Shown here piece after piece: positions 2,485-18,553 of a DNA stretch of 64,000 nt. Under the pieces are notes generated by a model, which saw only the letters and a list, made by a program, of their open reading frames with translations, had not been told where the DNA came from and made no database searches. The DNA is taken from the IMG/VR virus record IMGVR_UViG_3300038548_000082, positions 30,889 through 94,888 of that record; one strand, written 5' to 3'. Each line of letters begins with the position of its first letter. Positions within the stretch are counted from its first letter, which is position 1. The stretch comes from a virus. Taxonomy: Duplodnaviria; Heunggongvirae; Uroviricota; Caudoviricetes. The position numbers and the translations under genes are program-made.

Positions 2485-2918
2485 GAGCATATTTCTTTCA
2501 GAACATGTACTTGCAAGGGATTCATGCAGGTATTCAAAGCCAGCATTGTACTGCTGAGATGTTCTGTAAGTACAGTATCGGTAATGATTTGGATCAACCT
2601 ATGGCAAGAACCTTATATGCTTGGGCTACCTTCCATAAAACAACTATCGTGCTTAATGGTGGCGATGCTTCCAACCTGAAACGTATTGCAACGTTACTGG
2701 ATTCTCACCCACATAATTACCCTTGGACTTACTTCGAAGAAAGTGAAGAAGCCCTTGGTGGTTGTATTACTAACGTGGGGATCATCTTGCCTGAGAAGAT
2801 TTTTAATCACTTTTCTAGTGATGGTGAGATTGTAGAGTGTCCCTACAGTAACACGACATTAACGGAGTTTGAGATTAACTTAGCAATGGAGGTATCACAA
2901 TGCAGGTTGATGAGCTAA
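2469..2918 (+). CDS. hypothetical protein
   Basis: ORF track 149 aa; translationally coupled to neighbours. Confidence 0.45.
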   Translation: MEQELRAYFFQNMYLQGIHAGIQSQHCTAEMFCKYSIGNDLDQPMARTLYAWATFHKTTIVLNGGDASNLKRIATLLDSHPHNYPWTYFEESEEALGGCITNVGIILPEKIFNHFSSDGEIVECPYSNTTLTEFEINLAMEVSQCRLMS

Positions 2919-3421
2919 ACAGTATTGTACAGCACTACGCTGGTTCCTTATCTTATGGGACCAACTTACCCACTTCGGATGTAGATATTCGAGGGGTATT
3001 CTGTGCTGAGCCTAAGAACATTCGTACACCCTTCTACCCTGTACGTGAAGTCACACTACAGGATGAAGAGGATGGTAAGTTATACGAGCTTAGTACATAC
3101 ATGCATCTATACACTCAAGGTAATCCTAATATCTTAGAGACCTTGTGGGTAGACAATACAGATATCATTCAAGGTAGCGATGTTTACTCCTACCTACGAG
3201 GCTATCGTACAGACTTGCTAAGTTCTAAGGTAGCCTTTACCTTTAGTGGTTATGCTATCAGTCAGTTGAAGCGTATCAAAGGTCATAACAAGTGGATAAC
3301 CCAAGAGCAACGTGGGTATGCTAAACTTAGGGCTTCATTACGTTCTGGTGATATTTCTGAGAACCAGATAGTATACCACTTCGGAGAAAAGACTCTAAAT
3401 AAGGTTAAGGAAACAAAATGA
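2900..3421 (+). CDS. predicted nucleotidyltransferase, N-terminal half (pfam10127-like), split gene
   Basis: Motif GSxxYGxxxxxSDVDxRGV typical of pol-beta-fold NTases; stop overlaps HEG start (ATGA). Confidence 0.55.
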   Translation: MQVDELNSIVQHYAGSLSYGTNLPTSDVDIRGVFCAEPKNIRTPFYPVREVTLQDEEDGKLYELSTYMHLYTQGNPNILETLWVDNTDIIQGSDVYSYLRGYRTDLLSSKVAFTFSGYAISQLKRIKGHNKWITQEQRGYAKLRASLRSGDISENQIVYHFGEKTLNKVKETK

Positions 3422-4053
3422 AGTATTATGTGTACACGCTGTCTGATAATCACAAGATTTTTTATATAGGTAAGGGTTCGGGGGACAGGATGTATCGACA
3501 TCTTAAAAAGGTTAAAAGAGGGGCTACAACGGACAATCACCACCTTGACAATAAACTGCAAAAGATGTTACGCGATGGTGTGCAAATCTCATACAACAAG
3601 GTGTATGAAACTGGTGATGAAGGTCTTGCTTATGCTCATGAAAGGGAGCTAGTTGCTAAGGTGGGACTTTCTAATCTCTGTAATATACAAGCAGGGGGTT
3701 ATGGTGGTAACAGTCCCTCACAAGAGACTAGAGACAAAATTAGTGCATCCAAAAAGAGGAAGCCATTGACAGAGGCACACAAACAGAAGTTACGAGAAGC
3801 CAAACTAGGGATAAAACAGACACAGGAAACAAAGGATAAGCGGTCTCTTTCACTGAAAGGTAAGCCACAAACCGATAAACAAAAGGCATCAAACCACAAA
3901 AGGGGTCTTAAGGGTAGAAAACTTACCGAGGAGCACAAGCAGAAGCTACGGGATGCGAAGTTGAAAAACCCGACTAAATACTGGCTAGGAAAAGAAATCC
4001 CAGAAGAAACTAAACAGAAGATATCAACTACTTTAAAGGGGACTGAGAAATGA
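3418..4053 (+). CDS. GIY-YIG homing endonuclease with NUMOD3 repeats
   Basis: KYYVY...IFYIGKGSGDRMYRH GIY-YIG motif; C-terminal repeated KGxKxxEEHKQKLR NUMOD3-like units. Confidence 0.8.
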   Translation: MKYYVYTLSDNHKIFYIGKGSGDRMYRHLKKVKRGATTDNHHLDNKLQKMLRDGVQISYNKVYETGDEGLAYAHERELVAKVGLSNLCNIQAGGYGGNSPSQETRDKISASKKRKPLTEAHKQKLREAKLGIKQTQETKDKRSLSLKGKPQTDKQKASNHKRGLKGRKLTEEHKQKLRDAKLKNPTKYWLGKEIPEETKQKISTTLKGTEK

Positions 4054-4727
4054 ATATAACCAAGTTACTCGCTGATCCTGACGTAAGTCTTTTAACAGAG
4101 GAGAAGCCACAGCACAAAGACTACTTAAAGTTGGTGCAGAACTTTACAACGGCTAAGATTCTACCAAGAGAGTTCAACTTTGATTATTTGCGTGGTCACA
4201 GCATGGTACATTATGGTGGTAATACCTTTGGTGTGGATACTGGAGGAAGTGTTAGTGCTGTTACTGTTGATGGAGATTTCAACGTCTCTGCAAAACAAGC
4301 AGAAAGGAACGCTAACTCAGGTCATACACCTAAGTACATAGTCAAGTACCTAGCAGAAGATTACAAGCTTGCTAAGGAGAAGCATTACAACTACTGGAAC
4401 TGGAAGAACAATCGTAATGAGAAAAGAAGTGCATTAGAAGAAGATTTCGGTTATGATACAAAACATGCCATGCACTTAGTACGATTACTACGTATGGGTG
4501 AAGAGATTCTTTCAGGTCAAGGTGTAATTGTTAAGCGTCCTGACGCTCAAGAGTTATTAGACATTCGAGCTGGTCAGTGGAGCTATGAGGAGTTATTAGC
4601 TTACGCTGAGACGAAGGATGAGCTGATTAGAGGCGAGTTGTACAAGAATACAAGCTTACCTAAGACACCTAACATTAAATTAGCTAGCAAGGTCTTGATG
4701 GAAGCTCAAGACATGTGCTGGAATTAA
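4050..4727 (+). CDS. predicted nucleotidyltransferase, C-terminal half (pfam10127-like helical region)
   Basis: KHAMHLVRLLRMGEEIL motif characteristic of the C-terminal region of the same NTase family; start overlaps HEG stop (ATGA). Confidence 0.45.
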   Translation: MNITKLLADPDVSLLTEEKPQHKDYLKLVQNFTTAKILPREFNFDYLRGHSMVHYGGNTFGVDTGGSVSAVTVDGDFNVSAKQAERNANSGHTPKYIVKYLAEDYKLAKEKHYNYWNWKNNRNEKRSALEEDFGYDTKHAMHLVRLLRMGEEILSGQGVIVKRPDAQELLDIRAGQWSYEELLAYAETKDELIRGELYKNTSLPKTPNIKLASKVLMEAQDMCWN

Positions 4728-4984
4728 GAGGAGGGTTCGCAATGGGTGCTGGAGGATTGAGCTTAGCTTGGGCAGTTAAAGCTACCGCAGGTTATCGACT
4801 TGAAAACTATGATGGTGCTTTTATTGTCTACCCCGGTGCTGCTGCTGATTGCAAATCCTACTGTATTCAAGAGTCATTAGAAGCAGTTGTTATTAACGAA
4901 AAAACAGACCAAATAACCTTGGAGAAATACTATGACGCAACAGGAAAAAGGTACATCAATCCTAACTCGAACGGTTATTTTTAG
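4715..4984 (+). CDS. hypothetical protein
   Basis: ORF track. Confidence 0.3.
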   Translation: MLELRGGFAMGAGGLSLAWAVKATAGYRLENYDGAFIVYPGAAADCKSYCIQESLEAVVINEKTDQITLEKYYDATGKRYINPNSNGYF

Positions 4985-5621
4985 TGGGGGTACGATGGTA
5001 CATGTACGTCCTCATTTTAGTTTGTGTGCTCCAGCTTATGGTAAGGTGGGGAGATCCATAGGCGATTTGTTGACATCATGTACTGGTTTTAATAAAGGTT
5101 CACACCTTATCGAAGTCCTCAGTACAAATATGGCTGGTGGTAACCACGGTATTGAAACCAACAACGACCTTGATACAGCTTTGAGTGGGGTTCTGGCAGA
5201 CCCTTTAACCAAAGTTATTGTTATGGCTGCTGCTGTTTGTGACTTCGAGCCACATCATTTAGAAAACTTTAAAATGATTACTCATGACTTCGGAAAGACT
5301 GAAGAACGTCTTAGTTCACAAGACAGCTACTCACTAACGCTAATACCTTCTGCCAAGATCCTTCAACGTATTAAACAGGAACGTCCTGATATCTTTCTGG
5401 TTAGTTTCAAAACTACCTCTGACGAGGACGTGACAGCTTTGATAAGTAAGTCTAAGCAGAACATGAGTGTGACAGAAGCAGATGTGGTCTTTGGTAATGA
5501 TATAAAACGCCATTTTAACCTGTTAGTTAGTGGGGAAAGTATTACCTCTCTTGATAGATCGGGATGTGTGTCTGAGTTGGTTGGTATTCTAAAAGATGTT
5601 GTTGAGAAGTTCGAGGTATGA
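4932..5621 (+). CDS. CoaB-like (DFP / phosphopantothenoylcysteine synthetase family) protein
   Basis: Alignable by eye to E. coli Dfp CoaB domain: TVIFSGGT..VRPHFS..APAYGKVG vs RVLITAGPT..VRYISNHSSGKMG; AAAVCDF vs CAAVADY; NDI vs NDV. Confidence 0.5.
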   Translation: MTQQEKGTSILTRTVIFSGGTMVHVRPHFSLCAPAYGKVGRSIGDLLTSCTGFNKGSHLIEVLSTNMAGGNHGIETNNDLDTALSGVLADPLTKVIVMAAAVCDFEPHHLENFKMITHDFGKTEERLSSQDSYSLTLIPSAKILQRIKQERPDIFLVSFKTTSDEDVTALISKSKQNMSVTEADVVFGNDIKRHFNLLVSGESITSLDRSGCVSELVGILKDVVEKFEV

Positions 5622-5682
5622 CATTAGCCGGTATACCACTCAAGTGGATTCTCATTATGGCCTCAAGGGGGTTTTGATTATC

Positions 5683-5753
5683 CGCTCAAGCGATTTCTCA
5701 TATACGACTCAAGCGATTTCTGATTCACGCCTCAAGCGATTTCTCATATACGG
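5683..5753. repeat. three tandem direct repeats (~23 bp, core CTCAAGCGATTTCT)
   Basis: Core at 5685-5698, 5708-5721, 5731-5744; degenerate copy at 5661. Confidence 0.7.
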
Positions 5754-5799
5754 GTTTACACGTTTTTACACGAGAATTTGCTTTGAAAAGTGGATTTTT

Positions 5800-5900
5800 A
5801 CGAATACGAATGAGAATCATTATCAAACGCGAATGATTATCATTCAAGGTGTGAATACGAATCATTATCATTATCAAACACGAATAAGAATCATTAGCAT
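5800..5900. repeat. AATACGAAT...AATCATT repeat family (4 copies)
   Basis: Repeated AATACGAATgagAATCATTATCAAAC units; inverse of repeats at 13229-13386. Confidence 0.65.
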
Positions 5901-6014
5901 TTAGAAAACACCGCCCACTCTCTCTTCCTCTCTGATGAGATTCCGCTTAGACTTCCCTGCCTACCCCCTCTCAACAAGGCGAACTTCTTTCGCCCTCTCT
6001 CAAGTAGTGGGGCT

Positions 6015-6042
6015 ATCTTAACAGGCTGATAGCAGCTGTCAA
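6015..6042 (-). promoter_or_regulatory. sigma70-like promoter on minus strand (TTGACA-16-TAAGAT) reading leftwards into ORF-free repeats
   Basis: Reverse complement of 6015-6042 gives TTGACAgctgctatcagcctgtTAAGAT; part of 35-bp perfect inverted repeat. Confidence 0.5.
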
Positions 6043-6277
6043 CACTTTATTAAAAAGAATTTAAAATACTTTATTAGTAATGAGAATCATTCGCATTCGC
6101 TAAATAACGCCCACCTTCCCCTCCTCCGTAGTCAGAATGTATAGAGATCATAACATACTGATTAGCCCCGTCAACCACTAATTACAACTAATCACAAATA
6201 AACCTAAATTAAATTACCTATATAAGAAGCAACAACAAATCAAAAGTATTTTAAATTCTTTTTAATAAAGTGTTGAC
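6038..6277. repeat. 35-bp perfect inverted repeat (arms 6038-6072 and 6243-6277) carrying divergent promoters
   Basis: gtcaacactttattaaaaagaatttaaaatacttt vs its exact reverse complement. Confidence 0.8.
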
Positions 6278-6300
6278 TCTCTCTGTAGCTTTGTTAAGAT
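6273..6300 (+). promoter_or_regulatory. sigma70-like promoter (TTGACT-16-TAAGAT)
   Basis: Consensus boxes upstream of ORF 6340. Confidence 0.6.
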
Positions 6301-6339
6301 AGCACCACTTAAACAAAACGACTAAACAGGTACAAGCGA

Positions 6340-6645
6340 ATGATCACTAAAACCTCTATTAATACAACTGTTATTCTAAAGCTTTTAAAAGCCTTTCGTG
6401 AAGCTCAAAAACACGGAATAGCCCATGTTAGGAATAGGAAAGGAAACGCCTTTTTAGCTGTTAGAAAATTCATTGTTAACGGTAAAGTTTTTTTCCAAGT
6501 GTTAGACAAACATGGTAACAATGTTAAAAGGTTGATAACTTCAATGGTTTGCTCTTTTATGAATGCTGATATTGTTTCTCATAATGTGGCTGGCCTTTTA
6601 GTGGATCGTTTAGCCTACCCTTTCCAATTAGGGCAAAGAGCTTAA
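6340..6645 (+). CDS. hypothetical early protein
   Basis: ORF track; own promoter and conserved leader. Confidence 0.5.
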   Translation: MITKTSINTTVILKLLKAFREAQKHGIAHVRNRKGNAFLAVRKFIVNGKVFFQVLDKHGNNVKRLITSMVCSFMNADIVSHNVAGLLVDRLAYPFQLGQRA

Positions 6646-6652
6646 AAAGTTC

Positions 6653-6681
6653 TTGACAGCTAAATAGATACCCTGTAAATT
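6653..6681 (+). promoter_or_regulatory. sigma70-like promoter (TTGACA-17-TAAATT)
   Basis: Sequence boxes. Confidence 0.5.
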
Positions 6682-6711
6682 ACAAACTCAATTAATTAAA
6701 AGGTTTAGAAA

Positions 6712-6855
6712 ATGACTAATTCAGCGATGCAAAAAATCCGTAAACATCAAAAGCCAAAGACTAACAAGGATCTAGTCAAAGAGCATAAGAGCACAATTCG
6801 CAAGGCGAGAAAAAACCGCCATAATCTTTGGATTATCAAAGGAGATTTATTATAA
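6712..6855 (+). CDS. hypothetical small basic protein (47 aa)
   Basis: ATG after promoter; stop overlaps next start (TAATG). Confidence 0.3.
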   Translation: MTNSAMQKIRKHQKPKTNKDLVKEHKSTIRKARKNRHNLWIIKGDLL

Positions 6856-7145
6856 TGACTAATTTTCTAAACCGTAATGAAGTAGACGCCATTTTATTCG
6901 ACTTACAAGGTCAAATGGTAAGTGTTGACTTTATCAAAAAAGATGGAACAAAACGTAAACTTAACGGACAATTAGTACCTAGCCCCGGTAGCCATAATGG
7001 GCATAGTAATCTATTCACTATTGCGCTAGCTAGTAGCAAAAAGGACAATAAAGCATTTCGTTCTGCTAGTCGTGATAAGATTACGCGAATTGCTGGCAAG
7101 GGTAAAGTTTTTGCTGTACGTAGTAGCCTAGCAAGCTTGATCTAA
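6855..7145 (+). CDS. hypothetical protein
   Basis: Internal ATG with GGAG RBS preferred over ORF-track start 6828. Confidence 0.5.
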   Translation: MTNFLNRNEVDAILFDLQGQMVSVDFIKKDGTKRKLNGQLVPSPGSHNGHSNLFTIALASSKKDNKAFRSASRDKITRIAGKGKVFAVRSSLASLI

Positions 7146-7223
7146 GAGGTTTTAGCCCTTAGCCTATGCGATTGTATAGGCTAATACTAAACCCTTTTAA
7201 ACCGCCTTATAGGACGTTCTACG

Positions 7224-7577
7224 ATGTTTGACGATACCACATTAAAAGCAATACATTGTTATAAATCCTTTGAGCAAGATATAAGCCACAATTACAGTTT
7301 TGACAGAAAAGTTGTTATTTTAAAAAGTGTTGACGGCAGCTATAGATTTTGCTATAAACGTGCATTAGACCAAGGTATACGCGCTTTTGATAGTTGCTTA
7401 ATTGTGAGTAGTTCAAACACTATTACCAGTGTTTACACTGTACCTAGTAAGAGGCGGCAAAAAATAGCTAAACAGCTACTATTAGTAGCACGTTTAACAC
7501 TTGGTAGTGTTTACCATAACGACCATTTAACGGTTAGCGGTAAACTATGGCGAGATAGTGTAGAAAACTTAAAATAA
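7224..7577 (+). CDS. hypothetical protein
   Basis: ORF track; contains internal promoter-like TTGACG-17-TATAAA at ~7327. Confidence 0.5.
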   Translation: MFDDTTLKAIHCYKSFEQDISHNYSFDRKVVILKSVDGSYRFCYKRALDQGIRAFDSCLIVSSSNTITSVYTVPSKRRQKIAKQLLLVARLTLGSVYHNDHLTVSGKLWRDSVENLK

Positions 7578-7581
7578 AGTG

Positions 7582-7609
7582 TTGACAGCTACTATCAACC
7601 TGTTAAGAT
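7582..7609 (+). promoter_or_regulatory. sigma70-like promoter (AAGTGTTGACA-16-TAAGAT) + conserved leader
   Basis: Sequence boxes. Confidence 0.6.
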
Positions 7610-7641
7610 AGCTACAACTTAAACAAAGAGAGCAAACAACC

Positions 7642-8325
7642 ATGACTAAACTTACATTAAAAGCTGCTAAAAAATTCGGTGTCGTTACTAAAGGCAATAG
7701 CAAAATTCATGGTTCTACATTCTCTACTGATCCTTATCGTTGCAAGGTGGGATCTAAGCTTGTCAATGTCGAAGGTAGCACTTGCTCTAATTGCTACGCT
7801 CTTAAGCTTGCTAAAGTTTACCCAAGTGCGGCTAAGTCATGGTCCGATAACTTAGACTTATTTAGGGGCGCTGTTTATACTGGTGAGTTGCTAGAATGGT
7901 GTGAAGCAATCGCACATCAAATCAAAATGATTAGCAATCTAAAAGTTAAAAAAGGCGACAAAGGCGCTATGTTTCATCGGTGGTTTACAGCTGGTGATTT
8001 AGACAGTATGGATATGTTGCGCGCTTTTGTTAAAGTGGCTCAATTATTACCTGAAATCGAGTTTTGGCTACCAACACGAGAAAAGGCACTTGTTAGCCAA
8101 TATAAAAACGGCCTTGGTGTTGTCCCTAGTAACATGGTAATACGTCTCTCAAGCGCAATAATAGACGCTAGACCAATACTAGCAGCTAACACTAGCACTA
8201 CGCACAATAAAGGCGCTAAATCATACGGTTTTAAATGCCCAGCTCAAAAGACTAGCGGCAATTGTAACGATTGTACAACATGCTGGAATTCAGACATTAA
8301 AAACATTTCTTATGAAATACACTAA
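7642..8325 (+). CDS. hypothetical Cys-rich (putative zinc-binding) protein
   Basis: ORF track 227 aa; CxxC...C clusters. Confidence 0.5.
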   Translation: MTKLTLKAAKKFGVVTKGNSKIHGSTFSTDPYRCKVGSKLVNVEGSTCSNCYALKLAKVYPSAAKSWSDNLDLFRGAVYTGELLEWCEAIAHQIKMISNLKVKKGDKGAMFHRWFTAGDLDSMDMLRAFVKVAQLLPEIEFWLPTREKALVSQYKNGLGVVPSNMVIRLSSAIIDARPILAANTSTTHNKGAKSYGFKCPAQKTSGNCNDCTTCWNSDIKNISYEIH

Positions 8326-8333
8326 ATAAGTGT

Positions 8334-8362
8334 TTACAAGCCATACTGCACAATGTAGTATG
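8334..8362 (+). promoter_or_regulatory. promoter-like TTTACA-17-TAGTAT overlapping terminator hairpin
   Basis: taagtgTTTACA resembles cassette -35 consensus. Confidence 0.4.
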
Positions 8363-8370
8363 GCTTTATT
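8340..8370 (+). terminator. rho-independent terminator
   Basis: GCCATACT-loop-AGTATGGC followed by TTTATT. Confidence 0.6.
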
Positions 8371-8394
8371 AATCACTAGTAAGGAAGTAAGGAT

Positions 8395-8619
8395 ATGTCA
8401 TTCAGTAGAGATCAAAAGTTTTGCGGTAAATGCGGTAAACCTTGCGAGGTTATCACTATTGACGATGGCATAGGTAGCCACGAATTTTGGGGTAGTGTGT
8501 CAATTCACCATGATTATATTACCGTATCGGATTGCTGTGAGAGTGAACAGTATTTTGATGAAATAGAAGCTTTTGAGGAGCTAGGTGATAGCCACTTACA
8601 AATTGATTTAAAATTGTAA
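8395..8619 (+). CDS. small zinc-ribbon-like protein
   Basis: CGKCGKPC...DCC motif. Confidence 0.45.
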   Translation: MSFSRDQKFCGKCGKPCEVITIDDGIGSHEFWGSVSIHHDYITVSDCCESEQYFDEIEAFEELGDSHLQIDLKL

Positions 8620-8626
8620 TTAAGTG

Positions 8627-8655
8627 TTGACAAGTTAAAAACCGCTTGATAAGAT
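8627..8655 (+). promoter_or_regulatory. sigma70-like promoter (TAAGTGTTGACA-17-TAAGAT)
   Basis: Sequence boxes; stop codon TAA embedded in extended -35. Confidence 0.6.
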
Positions 8656-8687
8656 AGCTACACATTAAACGAAGCGAGTACAAAGTA

Positions 8688-8975
8688 ATGATATATTCAA
8701 CCATTACAACTGTTAAGAAAACTATTAACGTATTACCTCATAAAGTGCCAGCTATCAAAGATGCAGCTGCGAGGGGTGAGCAAGTTTTCTTCACTAATAG
8801 TGGCTATAATGCTAACAAAGGCACGGTACTCTTTGATGGTGGCTTAAATTATCATGTGTATGGTGGTAAACTGGGTCTAAGTCAAGAAACCATTGAACAA
8901 TTACAAGCTAAAGGCTTGGGTATTCTGGACACAACAAAAGGCTTTTTTCAATTCGCGTATTATGAAAATAAGTAA
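8688..8975 (+). CDS. hypothetical protein
   Basis: ORF track. Confidence 0.5.
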   Translation: MIYSTITTVKKTINVLPHKVPAIKDAAARGEQVFFTNSGYNANKGTVLFDGGLNYHVYGGKLGLSQETIEQLQAKGLGILDTTKGFFQFAYYENK

Positions 8976-8983
8976 ATAAATAC

Positions 8984-9011
8984 TTGCTAATAGCTGTCAG
9001 AGTGTTAAGAT
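8984..9011 (+). promoter_or_regulatory. sigma70-like promoter (TTGCTA-16-TAAGAT)
   Basis: Sequence boxes + conserved leader. Confidence 0.55.
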
Positions 9012-9043
9012 AGCTACAACTTAAACAGAAAGAGTATAAGACA

Positions 9044-9436
9044 ATGAACAACCCAAACATGATTAAAACAGCCCGTAATATCCTAGAAACTTCTATCAAT
9101 GCCGTAGATGCTAGCCCTAGCGATTACACGCTAACAGAGCTAAAGGAGCTTATGGCTGAAATTCTAGACAACACAGAGGTTGACTATTGTCTAGAGTTAG
9201 ACGGTTTTGGTGAGGTTCGTTTAATTCATTCAGATGATATGGCTGAAATCTGGACCGAATCACTACTTGAGCAAATTAAAGACTGTTATGAACTTGATAA
9301 GATTCCCGCCTTTGTTTCTATTGATTGGGAACAGACCGTCGAAAATTGCAAGATTGACGGCATGGGTCACCACTTTTCTAGTTATGATGGCAACGAATAC
9401 AGCTCAGGGGACTGGTATATATTCAGAACTAACTAA
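9044..9436 (+). CDS. hypothetical acidic protein
   Basis: ORF track. Confidence 0.5.
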   Translation: MNNPNMIKTARNILETSINAVDASPSDYTLTELKELMAEILDNTEVDYCLELDGFGEVRLIHSDDMAEIWTESLLEQIKDCYELDKIPAFVSIDWEQTVENCKIDGMGHHFSSYDGNEYSSGDWYIFRTN

Positions 9437-9459
9437 ACCAAGTTATTTTAACAAAGTGC

Positions 9460-9488
9460 TTTACATTGTGAGAGCACTTGATTAAGAT
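9460..9488 (+). promoter_or_regulatory. promoter (TTTACA-17-TAAGAT) with inverted repeat AAGTGCT/AGCACTT in spacer
   Basis: Sequence. Confidence 0.5.
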
Positions 9489-9520
9489 AGCTACAACTTA
9501 AACAAAACGAGTACAGCTCA

Positions 9521-9604
9521 ATGATTAATCTAAATAATGTAGTTAAAGGTGTTTCTTGGGGTTCTATCTTGTTGACAGTAGTCACCGTAGCTTTAGGGGC
9601 CTAA
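9521..9604 (+). CDS. 27-aa hydrophobic peptide
   Basis: ATG directly after conserved leader; single TM-like segment. Confidence 0.3.
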   Translation: MINLNNVVKGVSWGSILLTVVTVALGA

Positions 9605-9608
9605 AACA

Positions 9609-9749
9609 ATGTTAGATACTGCAATTACGCTAACAGGTCTATTTGTCTTTGTAATGGTTTTCGCTATTGGTGGTAGTGTTATTACCAACAAACTGTTAAA
9701 ATCGCTTAAAACGCCTCTCAGGGGCGCTACAAAGCATCCAACTAATTAA
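9609..9749 (+). CDS. 46-aa small membrane peptide
   Basis: ATG 5 nt after previous stop; hydrophobic N-terminus, basic C-terminus. Confidence 0.3.
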   Translation: MLDTAITLTGLFVFVMVFAIGGSVITNKLLKSLKTPLRGATKHPTN

Positions 9750-9837
9750 GAGAATGTATAGAAAAAGCTTGCTATTAGGATTAGTAAGCTTTAATATGTA
9801 GTTTCTTTCAACAGTAAAGCAAAAGCGAGTGCAATTT

Positions 9838-10068
9838 ATGAGTAATGTCGTGTTAGTAGCAACTAGTTATACAGGTTTTTTAAATTCTCAAAAAGCTGTC
9901 AAGGAAGCTTTTGATAATGACAAGGATTTCATTATTAAAAACGTTACAGACAGGTACTATGGTAAACCCTGTAATAAGTCGGATTTGTTACAAGCTACAG
10001 AGTATAATTGTGCTCAAATTTATTATGGTAAGAATAACGCTAAAGTGGTTTGTATTTATTTCAAATAA
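9838..10068 (+). CDS. hypothetical protein
   Basis: ORF track (start moved to MSNVVL). Confidence 0.45.
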   Translation: MSNVVLVATSYTGFLNSQKAVKEAFDNDKDFIIKNVTDRYYGKPCNKSDLLQATEYNCAQIYYGKNNAKVVCIYFK

Positions 10069-10071
10069 GTG

Positions 10072-10099
10072 TTGCATTGTTCTCAAAAGTCTGTAATAT
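10072..10099 (+). promoter_or_regulatory. promoter (TTGCAT-16-TAATAT), leader family 2 (CTTACTTACTTA)
   Basis: Sequence. Confidence 0.5.
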
Positions 10100-10133
10100 A
10101 GATCTTACTTACTTAGACAAGCAAGGCAGCGAC

Positions 10134-10253
10134 ATGAAACAGCATACTAAAGACATACTAGGCGGATTCGTTCAAGTGGTTGAAGTGGCTGACCATGGCA
10201 TAGTAGTTAGCTTGGTTGTCAAGTGTTTATTTCTTACAATTATTATTAAATAA
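10134..10253 (+). CDS. 39-aa small hydrophobic protein
   Basis: Internal ATG downstream of promoter. Confidence 0.35.
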   Translation: MKQHTKDILGGFVQVVEVADHGIVVSLVVKCLFLTIIIK

Positions 10254-10366
10254 GCCGCCACTTTGAGAGAGTGCGAACAGGTCGCTAGTAGGGATTCCAA
10301 ATCTCGAACGCGCCTTATTAGGTATGCTCAAAGCTGGCGCAATTATTATTAAATAGGGTTGACATT

Positions 10367-10618
10367 ATGAAAGCTTTAGTAACTATTAATTCAGTATTGA
10401 CTGTTATCATTAGTGGTCGTGGGTGTCAAGAAATTGACGATAAAACAGCTAAGTTAGTTAGTGCTGGCAATCCTGATAATAAGATTAATAGCTGGTATGT
10501 TGAATATGAGAAAAAGTCAAATACAGCGCCAGTTATCAGTATCCATAAAAACGCTAGTTTGGATCTTTACAAACAAGCGTATGAGACAATCGAAAACTTC
10601 CATAAATATCGTAAATAA
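10367..10618 (+). CDS. hypothetical protein
   Basis: ORF track. Confidence 0.5.
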   Translation: MKALVTINSVLTVIISGRGCQEIDDKTAKLVSAGNPDNKINSWYVEYEKKSNTAPVISIHKNASLDLYKQAYETIENFHKYRK

Positions 10619-10621
10619 GTG

Positions 10622-10648
10622 TTGACAGCTTAAGCCAAGGTCTATAAT
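10622..10648 (+). promoter_or_regulatory. promoter (TTGACA-15-TATAAT), leader family 2
   Basis: Sequence. Confidence 0.6.
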
Positions 10649-10690
10649 ATAGGCCTTACTTACTTAAACAAGCAATCAGGATTACAGAAT

Positions 10691-11086
10691 ATGAGCATTT
10701 TTACTAAATCAACAGTTATCGCATCCTACCCAGCATATGACATTATTAAGCGCGAAAAAGCTAGACAAGGTTATGTCAATCTTGTAGCTGGTGAGACCTT
10801 GGTAAAGTCTGACCATTTAGGCAGCTACAAAATCAATAGTGCGGTATCTTATGCCCTAGAGAATAATCAAGATCCTATTGAATCGTATAATCAGTGCCTG
10901 TCTAATGGTGACGATACCCATTGGATTAACGCTCAAGCGTCTAGCCTATCAGATTGCAAGGAAGCTAAAAAAGTTCATATTGAGATTGACTTTGAAACAA
11001 CTTATATGTTTGAGGGTAAATGGTTCAATATTAAGCCATCTGCTAATAACAACCTAAGGTTAGTACCGGCAACTTTTATCTTGTAA
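10691..11086 (+). CDS. hypothetical protein
   Basis: ORF track. Confidence 0.5.
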   Translation: MSIFTKSTVIASYPAYDIIKREKARQGYVNLVAGETLVKSDHLGSYKINSAVSYALENNQDPIESYNQCLSNGDDTHWINAQASSLSDCKEAKKVHIEIDFETTYMFEGKWFNIKPSANNNLRLVPATFIL

Positions 11087-11093
11087 TTAAGTG

Positions 11094-11122
11094 TTGACAA
11101 GGGGCGCAAGCCCCTATACTAT
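11094..11122 (+). promoter_or_regulatory. promoter TTGACA-[AGGGGCGCAAGCCCCT hairpin]-TATACT
   Basis: Sequence; GNRA-loop hairpin inside spacer. Confidence 0.55.
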
Positions 11123-11153
11123 AGCTACTCATTAAACAAAACGAGCAAAGATT

Positions 11154-11531
11154 ATGAAAACCTTTATTTTCTGGAATCCTGAAAAAGTTAGCGGTAACAC
11201 TACTCTCAACGGTTATACGTGTACCGTAGGGGAGCTACAAACCTTTGAAGCGGAGGAGAGTATTAGTATTAGTAGCACTCTATCGTTAGTTGATGAGGAG
11301 CAAGCCAAGGCGTTTGTAGAAGCTGTTTTATGTGAAGGTGACTTAGAGCTACGCTATGCTGAAATAATAGACTTCCAGAAGCTCTTATCAGTAATGGAGT
11401 GCTTGATTGATACAGTACAGAGTACTACAGACCTAGAAAATGTCTATGATGACAGCAAAGAACAGTCTTTTAGCTGGCAGGAAGTTATGGAACAGTACCA
11501 AGTATTAAAAGTACTTGCTAAGGTTGAATAA
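11154..11531 (+). CDS. hypothetical acidic protein
   Basis: ORF track. Confidence 0.5.
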   Translation: MKTFIFWNPEKVSGNTTLNGYTCTVGELQTFEAEESISISSTLSLVDEEQAKAFVEAVLCEGDLELRYAEIIDFQKLLSVMECLIDTVQSTTDLENVYDDSKEQSFSWQEVMEQYQVLKVLAKVE

Positions 11532-11534
11532 GTG

Positions 11535-11563
11535 TTGACAAGGGGCGCAAGCCCCTATACTAT
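11535..11563 (+). promoter_or_regulatory. promoter TTGACA-[hairpin]-TATACT (duplicate of 11094 module)
   Basis: Near-identical 60-bp module. Confidence 0.55.
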
Positions 11564-11594
11564 AGCTACTCATTCAACAAAACGAGCAAAGACT

Positions 11595-11858
11595 ATGAAA
11601 ACTTCAAAAACCGTATTGTCAGACGCGATTTTCTACTGCATGCAAAGTGAAAAGCTTTGGGACCATAACGACCAAAAATTTAAGGTTTGTGTTGACGTTT
11701 TGCAGCTGCCTTGCTTGATTGATGGGGTGACTGTTAGCGGTCAAAGCATCGTTGACTATGCTAGTGACATGAAAGAGCTGTATGCTGAGGGTAGCTACAG
11801 CCCTAGCGAGTTTCATGACATGTTTATAAGTGTTGAGAATTTCTTAGAGATCCAATAA
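11595..11858 (+). CDS. hypothetical protein
   Basis: Internal ATG after promoter/leader; ORF-track start 11532 would read through promoter. Confidence 0.5.
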   Translation: MKTSKTVLSDAIFYCMQSEKLWDHNDQKFKVCVDVLQLPCLIDGVTVSGQSIVDYASDMKELYAEGSYSPSEFHDMFISVENFLEIQ

Positions 11859-11865
11859 ATAAGTG

Positions 11866-11896
11866 TTGACAAGGGGCTAGCGCCCCTATACTATGG
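11866..11896 (+). promoter_or_regulatory. promoter TTGACA-[AGGGGCTAGCGCCCCT palindrome]-TATACT
   Basis: Sequence. Confidence 0.55.
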
Positions 11897-11928
11897 TTAC
11901 TCTTTAAACGAATACAGGAATTAAACAA

Positions 11929-12099
11929 ATGTACTGCATTTACAGTCTAAACCATACTAGCCAGAAAACATATCTCACAGACTTGGATGGCGAGCGTGTA
12001 ATCTACACAAAGGAGCTAGCAGAGCAACAACTAGAAATCTTTGAACAATTACCGTATAAGTCTTTGTATGTTACTTGGCATATGATCAAATATAGCTAA
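11929..12099 (+). CDS. 56-aa hypothetical protein
   Basis: ATG after leader family 1 variant. Confidence 0.4.
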   Translation: MYCIYSLNHTSQKTYLTDLDGERVIYTKELAEQQLEIFEQLPYKSLYVTWHMIKYS

Positions 12100-12125
12100 T
12101 ACAATCCAGCGAAAGCCTACAAAAC

Positions 12126-12155
12126 CTCTAGTGGTTATCTGCTAGGGGTTTTTCT
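12126..12155 (+). terminator. rho-independent terminator ending early cassette
   Basis: CCTCTAG-loop-CTAGGGG + TTTTT. Confidence 0.6.
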
Positions 12156-12181
12156 ACATCTAGTGCCTACCAACAGTCTAT

Positions 12182-12218
12182 ACCACAACATGTAGTATGA
12201 TACCATATGTTGTGGTAC
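12182..12218. repeat. 11-bp inverted repeat hairpin (TACCACAACAT / ATGTTGTGGTA); partial third copy at ~12311
   Basis: Sequence; also CTACATCTAGTG direct repeats at 12154 and 12237. Confidence 0.6.
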
Positions 12219-12887
12219 AAGTGAACCAATAACACTACATCTAGTGGTATATAAAAACTCTGTTTAATATAACAAAACGTTCTAGGTTAATTTATAACCA
12301 CTACCACTACATGTTGTGGTTTGCAAGTTATTTTTAACTATTATGAACTGTATTCTAAAATAGTGTGGTACAATCTCTATAAGGGTTTTTATAAGGTCTT
12401 ACAAAGCAGTTAAACGCACTATAAAAAGGTTTGTAAGCGAGTATAGCAGCTCCTCAAGAGAATAGATATACCCATAAGGCATAGCCAAAGGGTATAGAGT
12501 GTAAATACTATAAGAGACGTTTAAAGGCCTTTAAAGAGTATGATATTAAATAGGCCTTTTAAAACGTTTTAAGTAGAGTAAAACTTAATCACTCTAGTAT
12601 CGGCTTTGCCTACTACCTCTATTAATACTAGCCTTATAGCGAATAGGCGAGCCGTTAAAGCTCTTATAAGCGAGTTTGCCTAGCATCCTATAAAGAGGGT
12701 AGGGTATAAGCTAACATTGCTTACAGGCTACTATAGGGGCTATGAGAGTTGTCAAGTGTTATTAGCTGCTAATATGAGTTGTAAATTCTTCTACATTGTC
12801 TCTTATTCTCTCTTATGGGTTAGACCCCCTCACATCTTTCCACATATGTCAAGCTTTATTTTAATTATTTCCTCTCGTTAATAAGTG

Positions 12888-13340
12888 TTGACAATACCCT
12901 ACCAGCATGCTAGGCGTATCACTCTAGCTGCTAAGCAATTACCATGCCAGAACTTTCCAATAGTGTGAGCATACTAACAGCCCCTTGTCAACCCTTAATT
13001 AATCCTTGACAATACCCTTGCCCTATGCTAGGGCTATTCCAATCCTCATAGCACACACAAGGCCCCTTGTCAACCCTTGACATTATGTTATCAGTATGCT
13101 ATGAACATCGGTATAGTGTGAGCATACTCTACACTCTATGTCAACCCTTGACAGTATGCTGATAGTATGCTAGTGATGATGAGGTGTTGACAAGGAGTTA
13201 ACAGTATGCTAGCCACAGCATGAGAATGATTCGTATTAGCCATATGATAATGATTCGCATTCAACTAATAATACTTGACAAGGCGATGATAGTATGATAG
13301 TGATAATTAATAGTTGACAAGGCATTGATAGTATGCTAGG
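12888..13340. repeat. array of ~10 units TTGACA-N11-(G/C)(T/C)ATGCTAG, 7 direct and 3 inverted
   Basis: Direct units at 12888, 13006, 13077, 13148, 13187, 13275, 13314; inverted (CCCCTTGTCAACCCTT ... GAGCATACT) at ~12966-12993, 13046-13078, 13121-13150. Confidence 0.75.
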
Positions 13341-13386
13341 AGGATGATGAGAATGATAGTGCGAATGATAATGATTCGTATTCAAT
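13229..13386. repeat. AATGATTCG(T/C)ATT repeat family (inverse orientation of 5800-5900 family)
   Basis: GCGAATGATAATGATTCGTATTC (13362-13384) is 20/23 reverse-complement match to 5853-5875. Confidence 0.65.
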
Positions 13387-13591
13387 AAAAATATTCTTAA
13401 AAACCTATTGACTTTTGATATGGTTTTGTGGTACGGTTAAACACCTATACCGATAAGTTCAAATATTCAAAAGGTACTTCAAAGGGTTAACAACGTTAGG
13501 AGGATATTCTCCCTATAGGAGACAGGAGAAACCCCTTTCAATTGCTGATCGGGGTTATAAAAATTTGGAATTGTGAGGAAGAGGTGTACAA

Positions 13592-13798
13592 TTATTGATC
13601 AATCTTGAAATGGTTCTTAAATGTAGTAGCACTTACATACCCTATCATCCCTCCTGTGTCACACCTACTCAGACGATACCGTTCAATCCCTCTGAAGCCT
13701 CCTAAGGGAGTTGCTACTACTTTGTCATGTAGTTGGTAACGTCCTCTTTGGTCTCTGACAATAGCCACAGCATAGACGTTCTTACCTTTTAGTTCCAT
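13592..13798 (-). CDS. hypothetical protein
   Basis: ORF track, minus-strand block. Confidence 0.4.
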   Translation of the reverse strand: MELKGKNVYAVAIVRDQRGRYQLHDKVVATPLGGFRGIERYRLSRCDTGGMIGYVSATTFKNHFKIDQ

Positions 13799-13975
13799 TT
13801 ATAAATCACCAGATAGTCTCTTGTGTACTCTCCTGTCTTGTCATTCTGTACCAAGGGTGAGGTAGGTACTATCTGAACCACAGCTACCGTTCTAGGGAGT
13901 GCATTAATCACATTTTTAAGTTTGGTAGCAGTACAGTCCTTAGCTTCATTACACATTGTCATATATTACTACCTC

Positions 13976-14167
13976 CTATATTATCACACAACTGAAGATC
14001 CGATAAGTCTCTTCTAAATACCTAGCAGTCAGTGGCATACACTCGTTATCCTCATCATCCCAAGAGAAAGTGATAGGACGCCCGTCTTCGTCTCTGAACT
14101 GATCAACCTCGTCTCTGACACACTGAGGTGCTCCTCCTAAACCTATTACAATTGAATCCCTACTCAT
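13976..14167 (-). CDS. hypothetical protein
   Basis: ORF track. Confidence 0.4.
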   Translation of the reverse strand: MSRDSIVIGLGGAPQCVRDEVDQFRDEDGRPITFSWDDEDNECMPLTARYLEETYRIFSCVII

Positions 14168-14168
14168 G

Positions 14169-14360
14169 TTAATCTCCCATAACAGTTAGTTCTAATGCTT
14201 GTGTTATATGTCTCTTTATGATCCGGTAGCTCTCCTTCCCGTCTAATAGAGTACCATCATCATAAGCTAGTAGGAACTCCAGTTCGTTGTCAATCACATC
14301 ATGAATGATCTTGAAGCCACTCCCATCGTATTTAAGATTTGCCATACTCTTAACCTCCAC
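14169..14360 (-). CDS. hypothetical protein
   Basis: ORF track. Confidence 0.4.
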   Translation of the reverse strand: MEVKSMANLKYDGSGFKIIHDVIDNELEFLLAYDDGTLLDGKESYRIIKRHITQALELTVMGD

Positions 14361-14733
14361 TTCTAGCTATAATATTAATATCCTGTTTACAGGTAGGGCT
14401 ATAATCGTAACCACCTTTAAAGATCTTGCAAACATTAGGATGGTTCTCTGTATCTCTTATCTTGCATCCTACACCAACTTCCAAAGCCCTGCAAGTAAAG
14501 AACCCAGCAGTCTTTAAATACGCCTTGTTGTCCTCTAGTGTAAAGATATAAGGGTTTATCTTCTTAGCCCTACGCTTCGAAATAGGTGTCCAGTACTTAC
14601 GGAGTAACCTACCATCAGTGTAACGTTTCGGATCTTTTAGAAGGTTAGGCCAAACCTTAGCGGGGATGTGAATTACCTCGCAACATTTGGTACACCTACC
14701 TGTAGTGGATATGCAACTCATACCACCCTCCAC
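14350..14733 (-). CDS. hypothetical Cys-rich protein
   Basis: ORF track; multiple CxxC. Confidence 0.45.
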   Translation of the reverse strand: MEGGMSCISTTGRCTKCCEVIHIPAKVWPNLLKDPKRYTDGRLLRKYWTPISKRRAKKINPYIFTLEDNKAYLKTAGFFTCRALEVGVGCKIRDTENHPNVCKIFKGGYDYSPTCKQDINIIARSGG

Positions 14734-14963
14734 TTATATGTGTATTTACGTCTACCTTTAATAAAGTTCTTATTTGATTTTATCACAATTAACATTACAT
14801 CTACGGGTAGGTGTCGATGAAGTTGATACTGAAGGTGTTTGGTGTTACAAAACTTGGGTACTGTGATTATAAGGATTCCTCCTATCACACTCTCCGTGAT
14901 GTCAGCTCTCCACACCCCTGTCAACTTTAAGACGTTTTTTACATCTTGTCTAGTCTTTATCAT
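14718..14963 (-). CDS. hypothetical protein
   Basis: ORF track. Confidence 0.4.
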   Translation of the reverse strand: MIKTRQDVKNVLKLTGVWRADITESVIGGILIITVPKFCNTKHLQYQLHRHLPVDVMLIVIKSNKNFIKGRRKYTYKWRVV

Positions 14964-14972
14964 ACTAACCTC

Positions 14973-15440
14973 CTATATATTACCTGTTGCTAAATACTTA
15001 ACCTTATCCCATAAAGTCGCTTTAGGGTCTTCTTCAAACCTTGTCTCCCACGTTTGAGGGGGTGTGGGGTTAGGTGCTAAGGGTGTGTTAAAATACGAAA
15101 TAGCCTTTTCTAATTGTGTATCCAGTAACTCCCTCTGAGAAGGAATAGTATGAGAATTTTTAGTGAAAGTATACAACTCCTCTACCTCTCCTGTCCCTAC
15201 ATTAGTCCTGAACTTAAGTCTAGGCTTCTCAACATCTTGTTCTTCCAATGTAAGGAGTTCCTCGACTGCTCTAGCTATGGTGATCATACCAGAACCTAGG
15301 ATATGATTCAACCCTACCTTATCTGTGTACCACGCCTCAAACTCTTCACCAGAGTCAAACTTGTCTAGGTAGTCATTGTATATTCCTGCACCAGTACTAT
15401 GGTACTGTTCATACCACTTGAGTGTTTTTCTTTTAAACAT
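14973..15440 (-). CDS. hypothetical protein
   Basis: ORF track. Confidence 0.5.
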   Translation of the reverse strand: MFKRKTLKWYEQYHSTGAGIYNDYLDKFDSGEEFEAWYTDKVGLNHILGSGMITIARAVEELLTLEEQDVEKPRLKFRTNVGTGEVEELYTFTKNSHTIPSQRELLDTQLEKAISYFNTPLAPNPTPPQTWETRFEEDPKATLWDKVKYLATGNI

Positions 15441-15443
15441 AGA

Positions 15444-15641
15444 CTATTCCTGTACCCTGAATATCTCAGAGAGTTCCTTAGCTTTAAACATAATCCACTC
15501 ATTATCAAGTCGGTAAGTTTCTTGACCATCTTTACTCTCCACAAGCAGTGACCCCTCTACAGTGATATCCGTGTACCCTGTGTTGGTTCTTGAAACCAAA
15601 GTACTAGCTACTTTTGATAGCTGATTGTTTGTGGGTCTCAT
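15444..15641 (-). CDS. hypothetical protein
   Basis: ORF track. Confidence 0.4.
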   Translation of the reverse strand: MRPTNNQLSKVASTLVSRTNTGYTDITVEGSLLVESKDGQETYRLDNEWIMFKAKELSEIFRVQE

Positions 15642-15937
15642 TATGAAGTCTCCTTAGGGTACACTATCACCTCAGCCTCGTCTCTAGCTTCCTTAGCTAC
15701 TAACAACGCCTTAGCGTATTCACAGGCTTTGATAATAGTGTCTAAGGAACTTGGGTTATCAGTCCTAATCTCTAAGAAAGGGGTACGAACTTCTTCCTCA
15801 AGATTTTCTCTAGACACAAGATCACCTGCTTCACGTTCAATGTTACTTGTTGCGAGGACTATAGCAGCCACTCCACTTGATTTGTAAATACCTGCACTTA
15901 CTACTGTCTTACCATCACCTAATTCTAAGGTAAACAT
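15641..15937 (-). CDS. hypothetical protein
   Basis: ORF track. Confidence 0.45.
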   Translation of the reverse strand: MFTLELGDGKTVVSAGIYKSSGVAAIVLATSNIEREAGDLVSRENLEEEVRTPFLEIRTDNPSSLDTIIKACEYAKALLVAKEARDEAEVIVYPKETS

Positions 15938-15966
15938 ATTAATTCTCCTTATGGTTAAAGTTATCT

Positions 15967-16449
15967 CTACAGCCCTTGCTGTACATAGAAGTCATTAAGT
16001 TTAAACTTACTCTTAGCTTCACCCAAGATAGTGAAAGCTTCATGATACTTCTGCACACGTAGTGCATCCTTAACTGACAGCCCCTTTAAACGTGTGATAC
16101 AAGAGTTATGCTCCAGATCCTTACGCTTAACTCGTATGGCATCTAAGTTAGTTGTGATACCTGCAATGTAGGTCTCAAGATAGTCATCACCATCTTTGTG
16201 GGTTAACAAGTCTAATGCACCACGAACACGAGAGCTAAACCCCTCTACCAGAAGATACCCCATAGTGATTTGACTATCCTCAATCACATCATGTAACACA
16301 GCGATAGTTGCTAGCTGTGTATCAAACATTAATTGATTCATCAAATGCAGTGGATGTAAGATATAAGGTTTACCACCCTTATCGAACTGTCCTGTGTGAG
16401 CTTTTGTGGCTATCTCAATAGCTGTTGCTAGTTGTTCCATTTCGTTCAT
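15967..16449 (-). CDS. HD-domain (p)ppGpp hydrolase-like (small alarmone hydrolase / SpoT-hydrolase-like)
   Basis: KGGKPYILHPLHLMNQL and AVLHDVIEDS motifs = RelA/SpoT HD hydrolase signature. Confidence 0.7.
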   Translation of the reverse strand: MNEMEQLATAIEIATKAHTGQFDKGGKPYILHPLHLMNQLMFDTQLATIAVLHDVIEDSQITMGYLLVEGFSSRVRGALDLLTHKDGDDYLETYIAGITTNLDAIRVKRKDLEHNSCITRLKGLSVKDALRVQKYHEAFTILGEAKSKFKLNDFYVQQGL

Positions 16450-16455
16450 ATATAA

Positions 16456-16854: not shown

Positions 16855-16855
16855 A

Positions 16856-17481: not shown

Positions 17482-17483
17482 AT

Positions 17484-18499: not shown

Positions 18500-18553
18500 C
18501 AGTGTACCTCCGACGAGAAGTTCTGAGGTACTATTTTACCTTCAAAAACTGCT

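Follow-up and report, generated by a model that had tools for sequence, protein, structure and literature searches.

Predicted Fur-box arrays at both borders of the early-gene cassette of a large tailed phage

Architecture of the early region

A family of short AT-rich repeats lies at both borders of the early-gene cassette of a large tailed phage, and we describe here the resemblance of these repeats to the operators of the iron-responsive regulator Fur (“Fur boxes”) and the role that they may play. The window analyzed is a 64-kb stretch (64,000 nucleotides, positions 30,889 to 94,888) of the IMG/VR virus record IMGVR_UViG_3300038548_000082, and it covers part of the phage genome. On its left side, a long plus-strand operon ends with a gene that terminates at 5621. 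The cassette of small early genes occupies 6273–12157 on the plus strand, where it begins at the first plus-strand promoter and ends at a terminator-like hairpin with a T-run (about 12127–12157, recognized by eye), and most of the small genes within it (6340–12099) are preceded by their own consensus sigma-70-type promoter. A non-coding stretch of 1.5 kb (12100–13590) follows, and beyond it lies a minus-strand operon, which extends from 19924 to 13592. The repeats occupy the two transitions: the left ones lie between the plus-strand operon and the cassette, and the right ones lie within the non-coding stretch.

Two repeat clusters of opposite polarity

The family motif AATGATTCGYATT, with at most one mismatch allowed, has eight matches in the window, all of them at 5809–6097 or 13225–13382, as compared to a mean of 0.12 and a maximum of 2 in dinucleotide-preserving shuffles. 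The repeats thus form two clusters, spanning 5802–6100 and 13220–13385, with opposite polarity. The exact 8-mer AATGATTC has four minus-strand copies on the left (5814, 5859, 5888, and 6084) and three plus-strand copies on the right (13225, 13249, and 13370), with one stray copy outside the clusters at 33488. The best inverted pair, 5852–5872 against 13364–13384, is complementary at 21 of 21 positions. The initial annotation had described inverted copies of a repeat bracketing the early cassette, and this description is borne out by the eight matches, the two clusters of opposite polarity, and the 21-mer. The inverted stretch that it gave as 20 matches in 23 bp is in fact better, being a perfect 21-mer, although its coordinates were one base out of register, and the right cluster begins at about 13220 rather than at 13229. 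The enclosed contents—the promoter-rich small-gene cassette and a promoter-like array—were described correctly, but the right cluster is interleaved with the last elements of this array (12888–13337) and does not lie beyond them.

Could the repeats be a chance likeness within low-complexity AT-rich DNA? The G+C content of the region (36–38%) is below that of the rest of the window, and the motif itself is AT-rich, as this explanation would have it. However, the eight matches stand against an expectation of 0.12, with none outside the clusters, and an exact 20-mer of the family is common to bacteria and other phages, as described below. The shuffles and the sharing of the 20-mer refute a low-complexity coincidence, the chance of which we regard as negligible. 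Nor is the motif scattered, as its matches are confined to the two clusters within the window, apart from the stray 8-mer copy.

The clusters carry signs of local growth. The left cluster contains a 51-bp tandem unit (5802–5844 and 5853–5895, 84% identical) and a duplicated unit of 48 nt (5883–5930 and 6079–6126), while the right cluster contains a 127-bp tandem unit (13147–13230 and 13274–13357). Because the clusters grew by local tandem duplication, the uniform polarity within each of them is not independent evidence. In addition, the motif is near-palindromic, and the term “inverted” depends only on its asymmetric half, TTCGYATT.

Identification of the repeats as predicted Fur boxes

Fur boxes are textbook elements. 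In this analysis, a Fur box was defined by its match to the 19-bp classical consensus GATAATGATAATCATTATC, or by the presence of at least three NATWAT hexamers. The 19-mers of the clusters match the classical consensus at 13–15 of the 19 positions, with a best match of 15. At 14 or more matching positions, the window contains 11 such 19-mers, eight of which lie inside the clusters, and their number elsewhere equals the shuffle background. Overlaps of Fur-type matches in a 6-nt register occur only in the clusters (5806/5812, 5851/5857, 6076/6082, and 13355/13361/13367). The repeat units are phased hexamers, GAATNN, GATAAT, and ATCATT; Tandem Repeats Finder (TRF) independently reports GATAAT in 5.5 copies at 13343–13375 and ATCATT in 2.7 copies at 5861–5876. 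Documented Fur binding regions contain overlapping sites exactly 6 bases apart, in clusters of as many as 14 sites that span no more than 140 bp (PMC2189734).

The likeness to Fur boxes was tested independently by scanning genomes, one per species from 185,579 species, for the exact 20-mer AATGATAATGATTCGYATTC, which is present in both clusters. The 20-mer occurs in 63 species, as compared to an estimated two or so expected by chance for a 20-mer in 596 Gb. Nearly every carrier is a gamma- or beta-proteobacterium, and most of the sites fall between genes. A Pfam search of the 99 open reading frames (ORFs) flanking the 20-mer identified nine TonB-dependent receptor Plug domains, six FeoA/FeoB, six FTR1, and six ECF sigma proteins, together with three TonB, one FUR, one ferritin, and one siderophore-type periplasmic binding protein. 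In terms of these domain assignments, the flanking gene set is the core Fur regulon. Some of the loci are orthologous across related metagenome-assembled genomes, yet at least five different iron-gene classes are still represented, and the fur gene of Duganella adjoins one copy. At 29 of the 63 loci, the 20-mer spans the −10 element and the spacer of a promoter with a −35 hexamer matching at five or more of six positions.

No Fur homologue is encoded in the window, and the binding protein would thus be that of the host. Taken together, the repeat family very probably consists of Fur boxes, which are predicted binding sites for the host Fur protein. The initial annotation had suggested common operator sites flanking a regulated domain; the operator character stands, but the sites appear to belong to host Fur rather than to a phage factor, and the promoters of the early cassette are not overlapped by them. 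For the operator of a phage-encoded repressor, a lineage-specific motif with a cognate DNA-binding gene close by would be expected, but the motif is found in 63 bacterial species as well as in phages with almost no proteins in common with the window phage, and the Pfam search found no helix-turn-helix, regulator, or DNA-binding family in the cassette.

Conservation of the border clusters in relatives

Are the border clusters conserved? The region 5000–14000 has no megablast match among 50,697 phage records, and isolates are only distantly related to the phage. Searches of IMG/VR with three single window proteins found no relatives, and neither did an alignment-based search of JGI metagenome contigs with the first early protein. 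The homologues of a DFP-like gene (4932–5621) led to a 200-kb phage, which is not syntenic. The CCA-adding enzyme (1258–2484) has phage homologues at 55–76% identity, and its identity to the Pseudoalteromonas, Colwellia, and Alteromonas enzymes is about 50%, a weak hint of a gammaproteobacterial host.

Two syntenic lineages were found, one represented by two near-identical strains, L110 and L111 (CCA-adding enzyme 68% identical to that of the window), and the other by L106 (73%). The three phages have a common layout: the plus-strand operon, iteron-like direct repeats, a short slot, a leftward transcript from a strong sigma-70 promoter, a divergent promoter with the early cassette, about 1.5 kb of non-coding DNA with TTGACA-N12-TATGNT elements, and finally the minus-strand operon. 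The first early gene is 47–50% identical in L106 and L110/L111, and a GP88-domain gene is also shared. More distant relatives by the CCA-adding enzyme (L107/L108, L109, L113, and L114) have another layout near this gene and no Fur clusters.

The comparison of the boundaries with relatives, which the initial annotation had proposed, gave a divided result. L110/L111 carry a Fur-box cluster on each side of the cassette, on the left at 13195–13242 (two boxes) and on the right at 19082–19218 (three boxes), and their polarity is mirrored as in the window, while the left and right boxes of L110 have no long identical stretch in common. In contrast, L106 has no Fur box despite the shared architecture. 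Its left slot is filled by a different repeat, CATTTAGTTATAAA, which is not repeated at the right border of L106, where no mirrored motif is present. As judged from these relatives, the two-border arrangement is conserved in two diverged lineages, yet it is dispensable for the architecture.

These relatives bear on two further proposals of the initial annotation. The first is that the cassette is a horizontally acquired island. The syntenic relatives hold the cassette in the same place, with boxes (L110/L111) or without them (L106), and hence the boxes do not define the cassette ends; by this comparison, the cassette is ancestral and not an island. The second is a recombination system, in which the 7.5-kb segment would invert or be excised between the clusters. 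The perfect 21-bp inverted match and the opposite polarity of the clusters are what such a system would display. However, the Pfam search of 36 ORFs in the cassette and the minus-strand operon (6340–20700) found no recombinase, integrase, invertase, or transposase, and the two sides resemble each other only in short copies of multi-copy sites, not in unique terminal sequences. An independent assembly of the same phage (Logan SRR12660648) is 100% identical over 1–6067, 6248–11117, and 11545–25440; this one assembly is colinear on both outer flanks, through 5900–6067 and 13386–11545. Moreover, the arrangement persists in L110 even though its two sides share no long identical stretch, and the cassette has the same orientation in the relatives. 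An invertible or excisable module is therefore highly improbable. The gaps in the Logan assembly fall at other repeats, namely a 35-bp inverted repeat and a 74-nt direct repeat (11088/11529).

The exact 20-mer AATGATAATGATTCGYATTC is present, too, in two IMG/VR contigs with hardly any proteins in common with the window phage, and the perfect canonical 19-mer was found in 32 viral contigs, among them L084. Both L002 and L084 are real tailed phages, since they encode a terminase and a portal protein. L002 has about five boxes, one of which is near-canonical (six Fur-type hits in 120 bp), and a 41-bp stretch that is 90% identical to 13343–13383 of the window. L084 (IMGVR_UViG_3300033068_002045, 10540–11325) carries a terminal tandem array of at least 560 bp, which extends to the contig end with 26 overlapping hits at 14 or more of 19 positions. 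The array consists of near-canonical boxes, including three perfect copies of the 19-mer, and is preceded by an iteron-like block of GCTAAGTSCCAGG repeats; it is the most extreme phage Fur-box array in this analysis.

Elements of the left border

The left Fur-box array (5802–5900, minus strand) is composed of two tandem 51-bp units with overlapping 19-mers at 5806, 5812, 5829, 5851, 5857, and 5880, and it includes the exact 20-mer that marks bacterial iron-gene promoters. An isolated Fur box, AATGAGAATCATTCGCATT (6076–6100, minus strand), matches the consensus at 14 of 19 positions at 6076 and at 13 of 19 at 6082, and lies between two leftward early-type promoters. One of these is a strong sigma-70 promoter, TTGACA-16-TAAGAT with a TG extension (6015–6042, minus strand), which shares 95% identity over 40 nt with the promoter (7573–7612) preceding the early gene at 7642–8325. 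The other, TTGACG-16-TATGAT, also with TG, is located at 6147–6174 on the minus strand. Within the array itself, the boxes at 5806, 5812, and 5829 cover a candidate leftward promoter, TTGAAT-17-GATAAT (5819–5847, minus strand), which matches the consensus at 9 of 12 positions, and a corresponding ATGAGA-17-TATAAT sequence (about 13215 to 13187, as read from the sequence) lies under a Fur box in L110. We infer that the 5847-to-5819 element is a Fur-overlapped leftward promoter.

A purine-rich, predicted non-coding transcript (5896–6008, minus strand) would start from the 6042 promoter and end at the Fur array, and it is conserved in L106. The transcript contains GGAGG-type runs, ends in GGGCG, and aligns with 12003–12112 (minus strand) of L106; a short paralogue is located at 6100–6140 (minus strand). 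The window and L106 RNAs have a 5′ hairpin in common, formed by different stems (GGGCGAA/UUCGCC against GGCCA/UGGCU), and their folding z-scores are modest (−1.3 and −1.8). An Rfam search of 5000–20500 returned nothing at E values up to 1, and therefore the border transcripts are not RyhB, PrrF, or another curated RNA family.

Between the end of the plus-strand operon (5621) and the left array lie five 23-bp direct repeats, CTCAAGCGATTTCTCAT... (5638–5752), with a CTCAAG core. Each repeat holds a small palindrome with co-varying arms (CCAC..GTGG, CGC..GCG). Iteron-like repeats are present in the corresponding slot of L110 (13035–13140) and L106 (11741–11830), and the direct repeats may represent an origin of replication, a site for packaging, or an array to which a protein binds. 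They are followed by two DnaA-box-like 9-mers (8 and 7 matches of 9, found by eye) at about 5755–5780.

This neighborhood speaks for another possibility, in which the sites only resemble Fur boxes and serve a different protein or DNA function, as the targets of a phage regulator or an AT-tract binder, or as the AT-rich unwinding part of an origin. The left array adjoins the direct repeats and has the same 23-bp period, and the DnaA-box-like 9-mers lie next to it; the L084 array likewise adjoins an iteron-like repeat block, and L106 has different repeats in the same slot. On the other hand, promoters of the Fur regulon bear the exact 20-mer in 63 bacterial species, and it recurs in phages that share almost no proteins with the window phage, while no regulator family was detected in the cassette. 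Furthermore, an origin role leaves the second cluster, 7.4 kb away, unexplained. We consider such a function improbable.

Elements of the right border

On the right side, boxes 1 and 2, GAGAATGATTCGTATTAGC and GATAATGATTCGCATTCAA (13220–13264, plus strand), each match the consensus at 14 of 19 positions and are exact matches to the family. Right array 3 (13343–13385, plus strand) contains four overlapping, hexamer-phased 19-mers at 13343, 13355, 13361, and 13367, and holds the perfect 21-mer partner of 5852–5872. Between them, within the tandem duplicate, lies a weaker Fur-like 19-mer (13296–13314, plus strand; 14 of 19). Each group is immediately preceded by a promoter-like TTGACA-N12-TATGCTAG element on the plus strand: the element at 13187–13212 lies upstream of boxes 1 and 2, which begin about 10 nt past it, and the element at 13314–13339 lies upstream of array 3.

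These two elements belong to a larger set. TTGACA-N12-TATG(C/A)T occurs in ten copies, as compared to 1.0 expected, all within the 450-bp array at 12888–13337; seven have plus-strand and three have minus-strand orientation, and three form back-to-back pairs (TGTCAA-CCC-TTGACA). The more general TTGACA-N12-TATGNT recurs at the equivalent site in the relatives (L106 at 19030 and 19172, L110 at 19044) and at operon starts in other phage contigs (L002 at 8829, L071 at 9186). It may be a promoter of a separate class, as in sigma appropriation, or a site to which a protein binds. In four instances from three phages (13187 and 13314 in the window, 19044 in L110, and 9186 in L071), a box begins 5–17 nt after TATGNT, and if TATGNT is the −10 element, the boxes would cover approximately +0 to +30. 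A degenerate IMG/VR scan for TTGACA-N12-TATGNT followed by RAKAATGAT gave at least 120 matches, which are mostly those expected by chance.

A conserved stretch of about 180 nt separates the right Fur cluster from the end of the minus-strand operon (13408–13590 in the window, 19325–19560 in L106, and 19280–19520 in L110). It opens with a promoter-like TTGACT-N18-TACGGT with a TG extension, followed by GTTAA(A/G)CACCT, and could encode either a small RNA transcribed rightward or an antisense unit. A Fur-regulated, C/U-rich plus-strand small RNA downstream of the boxes is a possibility, for which the plus strand offers only weak promoter matches, with the strong promoters on the opposite strand. 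Elsewhere in the non-coding stretch, a ACCACAAnATGTAGTGG-like motif occurs in multiple copies and both orientations at 12160–12340, and it is also kept in L110 (18120–18270).

Possible roles of the border arrays

How might Fur act at the two borders? We propose that Fur-box arrays at the early-region borders let iron-loaded Fur gate the transcription that crosses them, an explanation that, taken as a whole, we hold to be evenly balanced between right and wrong. The narrower statement that the main role of the arrays is the cis control by Fe-Fur of outward transcription at both borders is plausible, and we rate it just short of that balance. The binding of Fur during infection, the promoters under its control, and the physiological outcome are all inferred from the DNA sequence.

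In an iron-replete host, Fe2+-Fur dimers would bind to the hexamer-phased arrays and overlap each other in 6-bp steps, and the bound Fur would stop the transcription that leaves the early region. On the left, Fur would block the candidate box-overlapped leftward promoter (5847 to 5819), as well as any read-through from the strong promoters at 6042 and 6174. On the right, the block would fall on transcripts heading rightward from the two TTGACA-N12-TATGCTAG elements (13187 and 13314), the predicted starts of which lie 0–10 nt before the boxes. In an iron-starved host, Fur would be off the DNA, and the border transcripts could fire or extend. The released transcripts would then pass over the iteron-like repeats and enter both flanking operons at their 3′ ends, in antisense orientation. 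In this way, the phage program would be coupled to the iron status of the host.

Several observations weigh against this proposal. First, none of the strong consensus promoters, including those at 6042 and 6174, lies under a Fur box, and the left boxes lie about 100–200 nt downstream of the 6042 promoter, which is unusual for a repressor. Second, the promoter matches that the boxes do overlap (5847 to 5819, 13198–13227, 13220–13248, and 13325–13354) are weak, at 9 of 12 positions each, and matches of this quality are common in AT-rich DNA (52 against 27 expected in the region). Third, the 12-bp spacing of the putative TTGACA-N12-TATGCT promoters does not fit sigma-70. Fourth, the mirrored polarity of the clusters is weak evidence, as only two independent lineages remain, and the argument from outward polarity is also statistically weak, because bacteria use the 20-mer both ways (20 reverse and 9 forward with respect to the promoter). 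Fifth, L106 maintains the same architecture with no Fur box. Finally, in other work the in-silico prediction of host-factor boxes in phages has turned out to be unreliable (PMC10976474).

The main rival to cis control is that the arrays act in trans as a Fur “sponge”, in which about a dozen boxes per replicating genome copy titrate the host Fur. The iron-uptake regulon of the host would thereby be derepressed, providing more iron for phage synthesis, or a Fur-dependent host response would be blunted. The many boxes per genome, expanded by tandem duplication, are consistent with this idea, as are the larger arrays in unrelated phage contigs (26 hits in 560 bp in L084 and six in 120 bp in L002) and the strong promoters left free of boxes. 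The derepression of Fur-controlled genes by multicopy Fur boxes is also the principle of the Fur titration assay, FURTA (PMC3145626). In contrast, L110/L111 have only two and three boxes at their borders, in an operator-like manner, the boxes lie at a fixed short distance past the promoter-like elements in three phages, and L106 manages without any. In addition, titration would presumably count only late, at high copy number, when host expression may not matter. A sponge as the main role is thus rather unlikely.

A broader reading would be that some apparently lytic marine gamma-proteobacterial phages carry host Fur-box arrays as a device, either as a sponge that draws Fur off the host chromosome and thereby turns on iron uptake during infection, or as a pair of Fur-bound anchors that insulate or loop the 7.4-kb early domain at high iron only, in which case iron would gate the early-to-late program. 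We judge this doubtful, to a degree slightly greater than for the sponge. If it were true, the arrays in L002 and L084 and the two-border arrangement in two lineages would mark a general and undescribed way in which phages read or rewrite the iron homeostasis of their hosts.

Relation to known systems

The closest counterparts are the Fur boxes of proteobacterial iron-uptake genes. The window arrays belong to the same GATAATGATAATCATTATC/GATAAT sequence family, with 6-bp overlaps and clusters of 25–100 bp that are within the range of Fur footprints (PMC2189734), and one member is letter-identical to operators located by feoAB, FTR1, TonB-dependent receptor, tonB, and fur genes. In contrast to these operators, the window sites belong to a phage whose examined region yielded no lysogeny genes, and they have no iron gene in their vicinity. 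Their two arrays, separated by 7.4 kb, flank early genes and overlap no strong promoter.

A host Fur operator on a phage genome has a precedent in the fur box of sitABCD in temperate lambdoid coliphages (PMC6969025). That case is a single operator before the iron cargo operon of a prophage, whereas the window has arrays at the borders of an early region. The use of the operator of a host nutrient-stress regulator by a lytic phage is known from the Pho boxes of cyanophages, and PhoB-box binding has been demonstrated experimentally for cyanophage S-PM2d (PMC10976474). PhoB, however, is an activator upstream of individual genes, while Fur is a repressor, with multi-site arrays in the window. In FURTA, many Fur boxes on a multicopy replicon derepress chromosomal targets, and a replicating phage is formally equivalent (PMC3145626), but FURTA is a laboratory assay. 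We found no natural phage-borne Fur sponge in the literature, and no description of Fur-box arrays in virulent phages, at early-region borders, or recurring in unrelated phages, although our coverage was incomplete and this is only an absence of evidence.

What would functional boxes mean for the phage? Iron is a limiting factor for bacterial growth across large parts of the ocean, and Fur-regulated iron transporters account for many phage receptors. Should a virulent phage carry functional or Fur-titrating boxes, the infection outcome would depend on the iron regulation of the host, or the infection would change it. Fur would then join PhoB, borrowed by cyanophages, on the short list of host nutrient regulators borrowed by lytic phages.

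Other features of the window

The window encodes a portal protein, a major head protein, a tape measure protein, a CCA-adding enzyme, NAMPT, and homing endonucleases. The large terminase (25032–26600) is at most 52% identical to its best matches, which are those of FelixO1/rV5-like and Aeromonas phages. Sixteen tRNAs are located at 20763–24811.

Two other repeats are associated with early promoters. The perfect 35-bp inverted repeat (6038–6072 and 6243–6277), with its arms 170 nt apart, is a duplication of the AT-rich upstream element and the −35 hexamer of two divergent promoters, and the Logan contigs end there, at 6067 and 6248. The 74-nt promoter-plus-leader unit is doubled, at 11088–11161 and 11529–11602 (97% identity), before two adjacent early genes; the GC hairpins GGGGCGCAAGCCCC in its promoter spacers could also serve the upstream gene as terminators.

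In the plus-strand operon, an RlaP-type nucleotidyltransferase gene (2900–4727) is present as two ORFs, 2900–3421 and 4050–4727, and is interrupted by a GIY-YIG/NUMOD3 homing-endonuclease ORF (3418–4053), while the relatives have a single intact gene of 347–357 amino acids. In the minus-strand operon, a 74-amino-acid ORF (19252–19476, minus strand) matches the Acb2/Tad1 hairpin domain of the anti-CBASS/anti-Thoeris sponge family, which suggests that this operon contains anti-defense genes.

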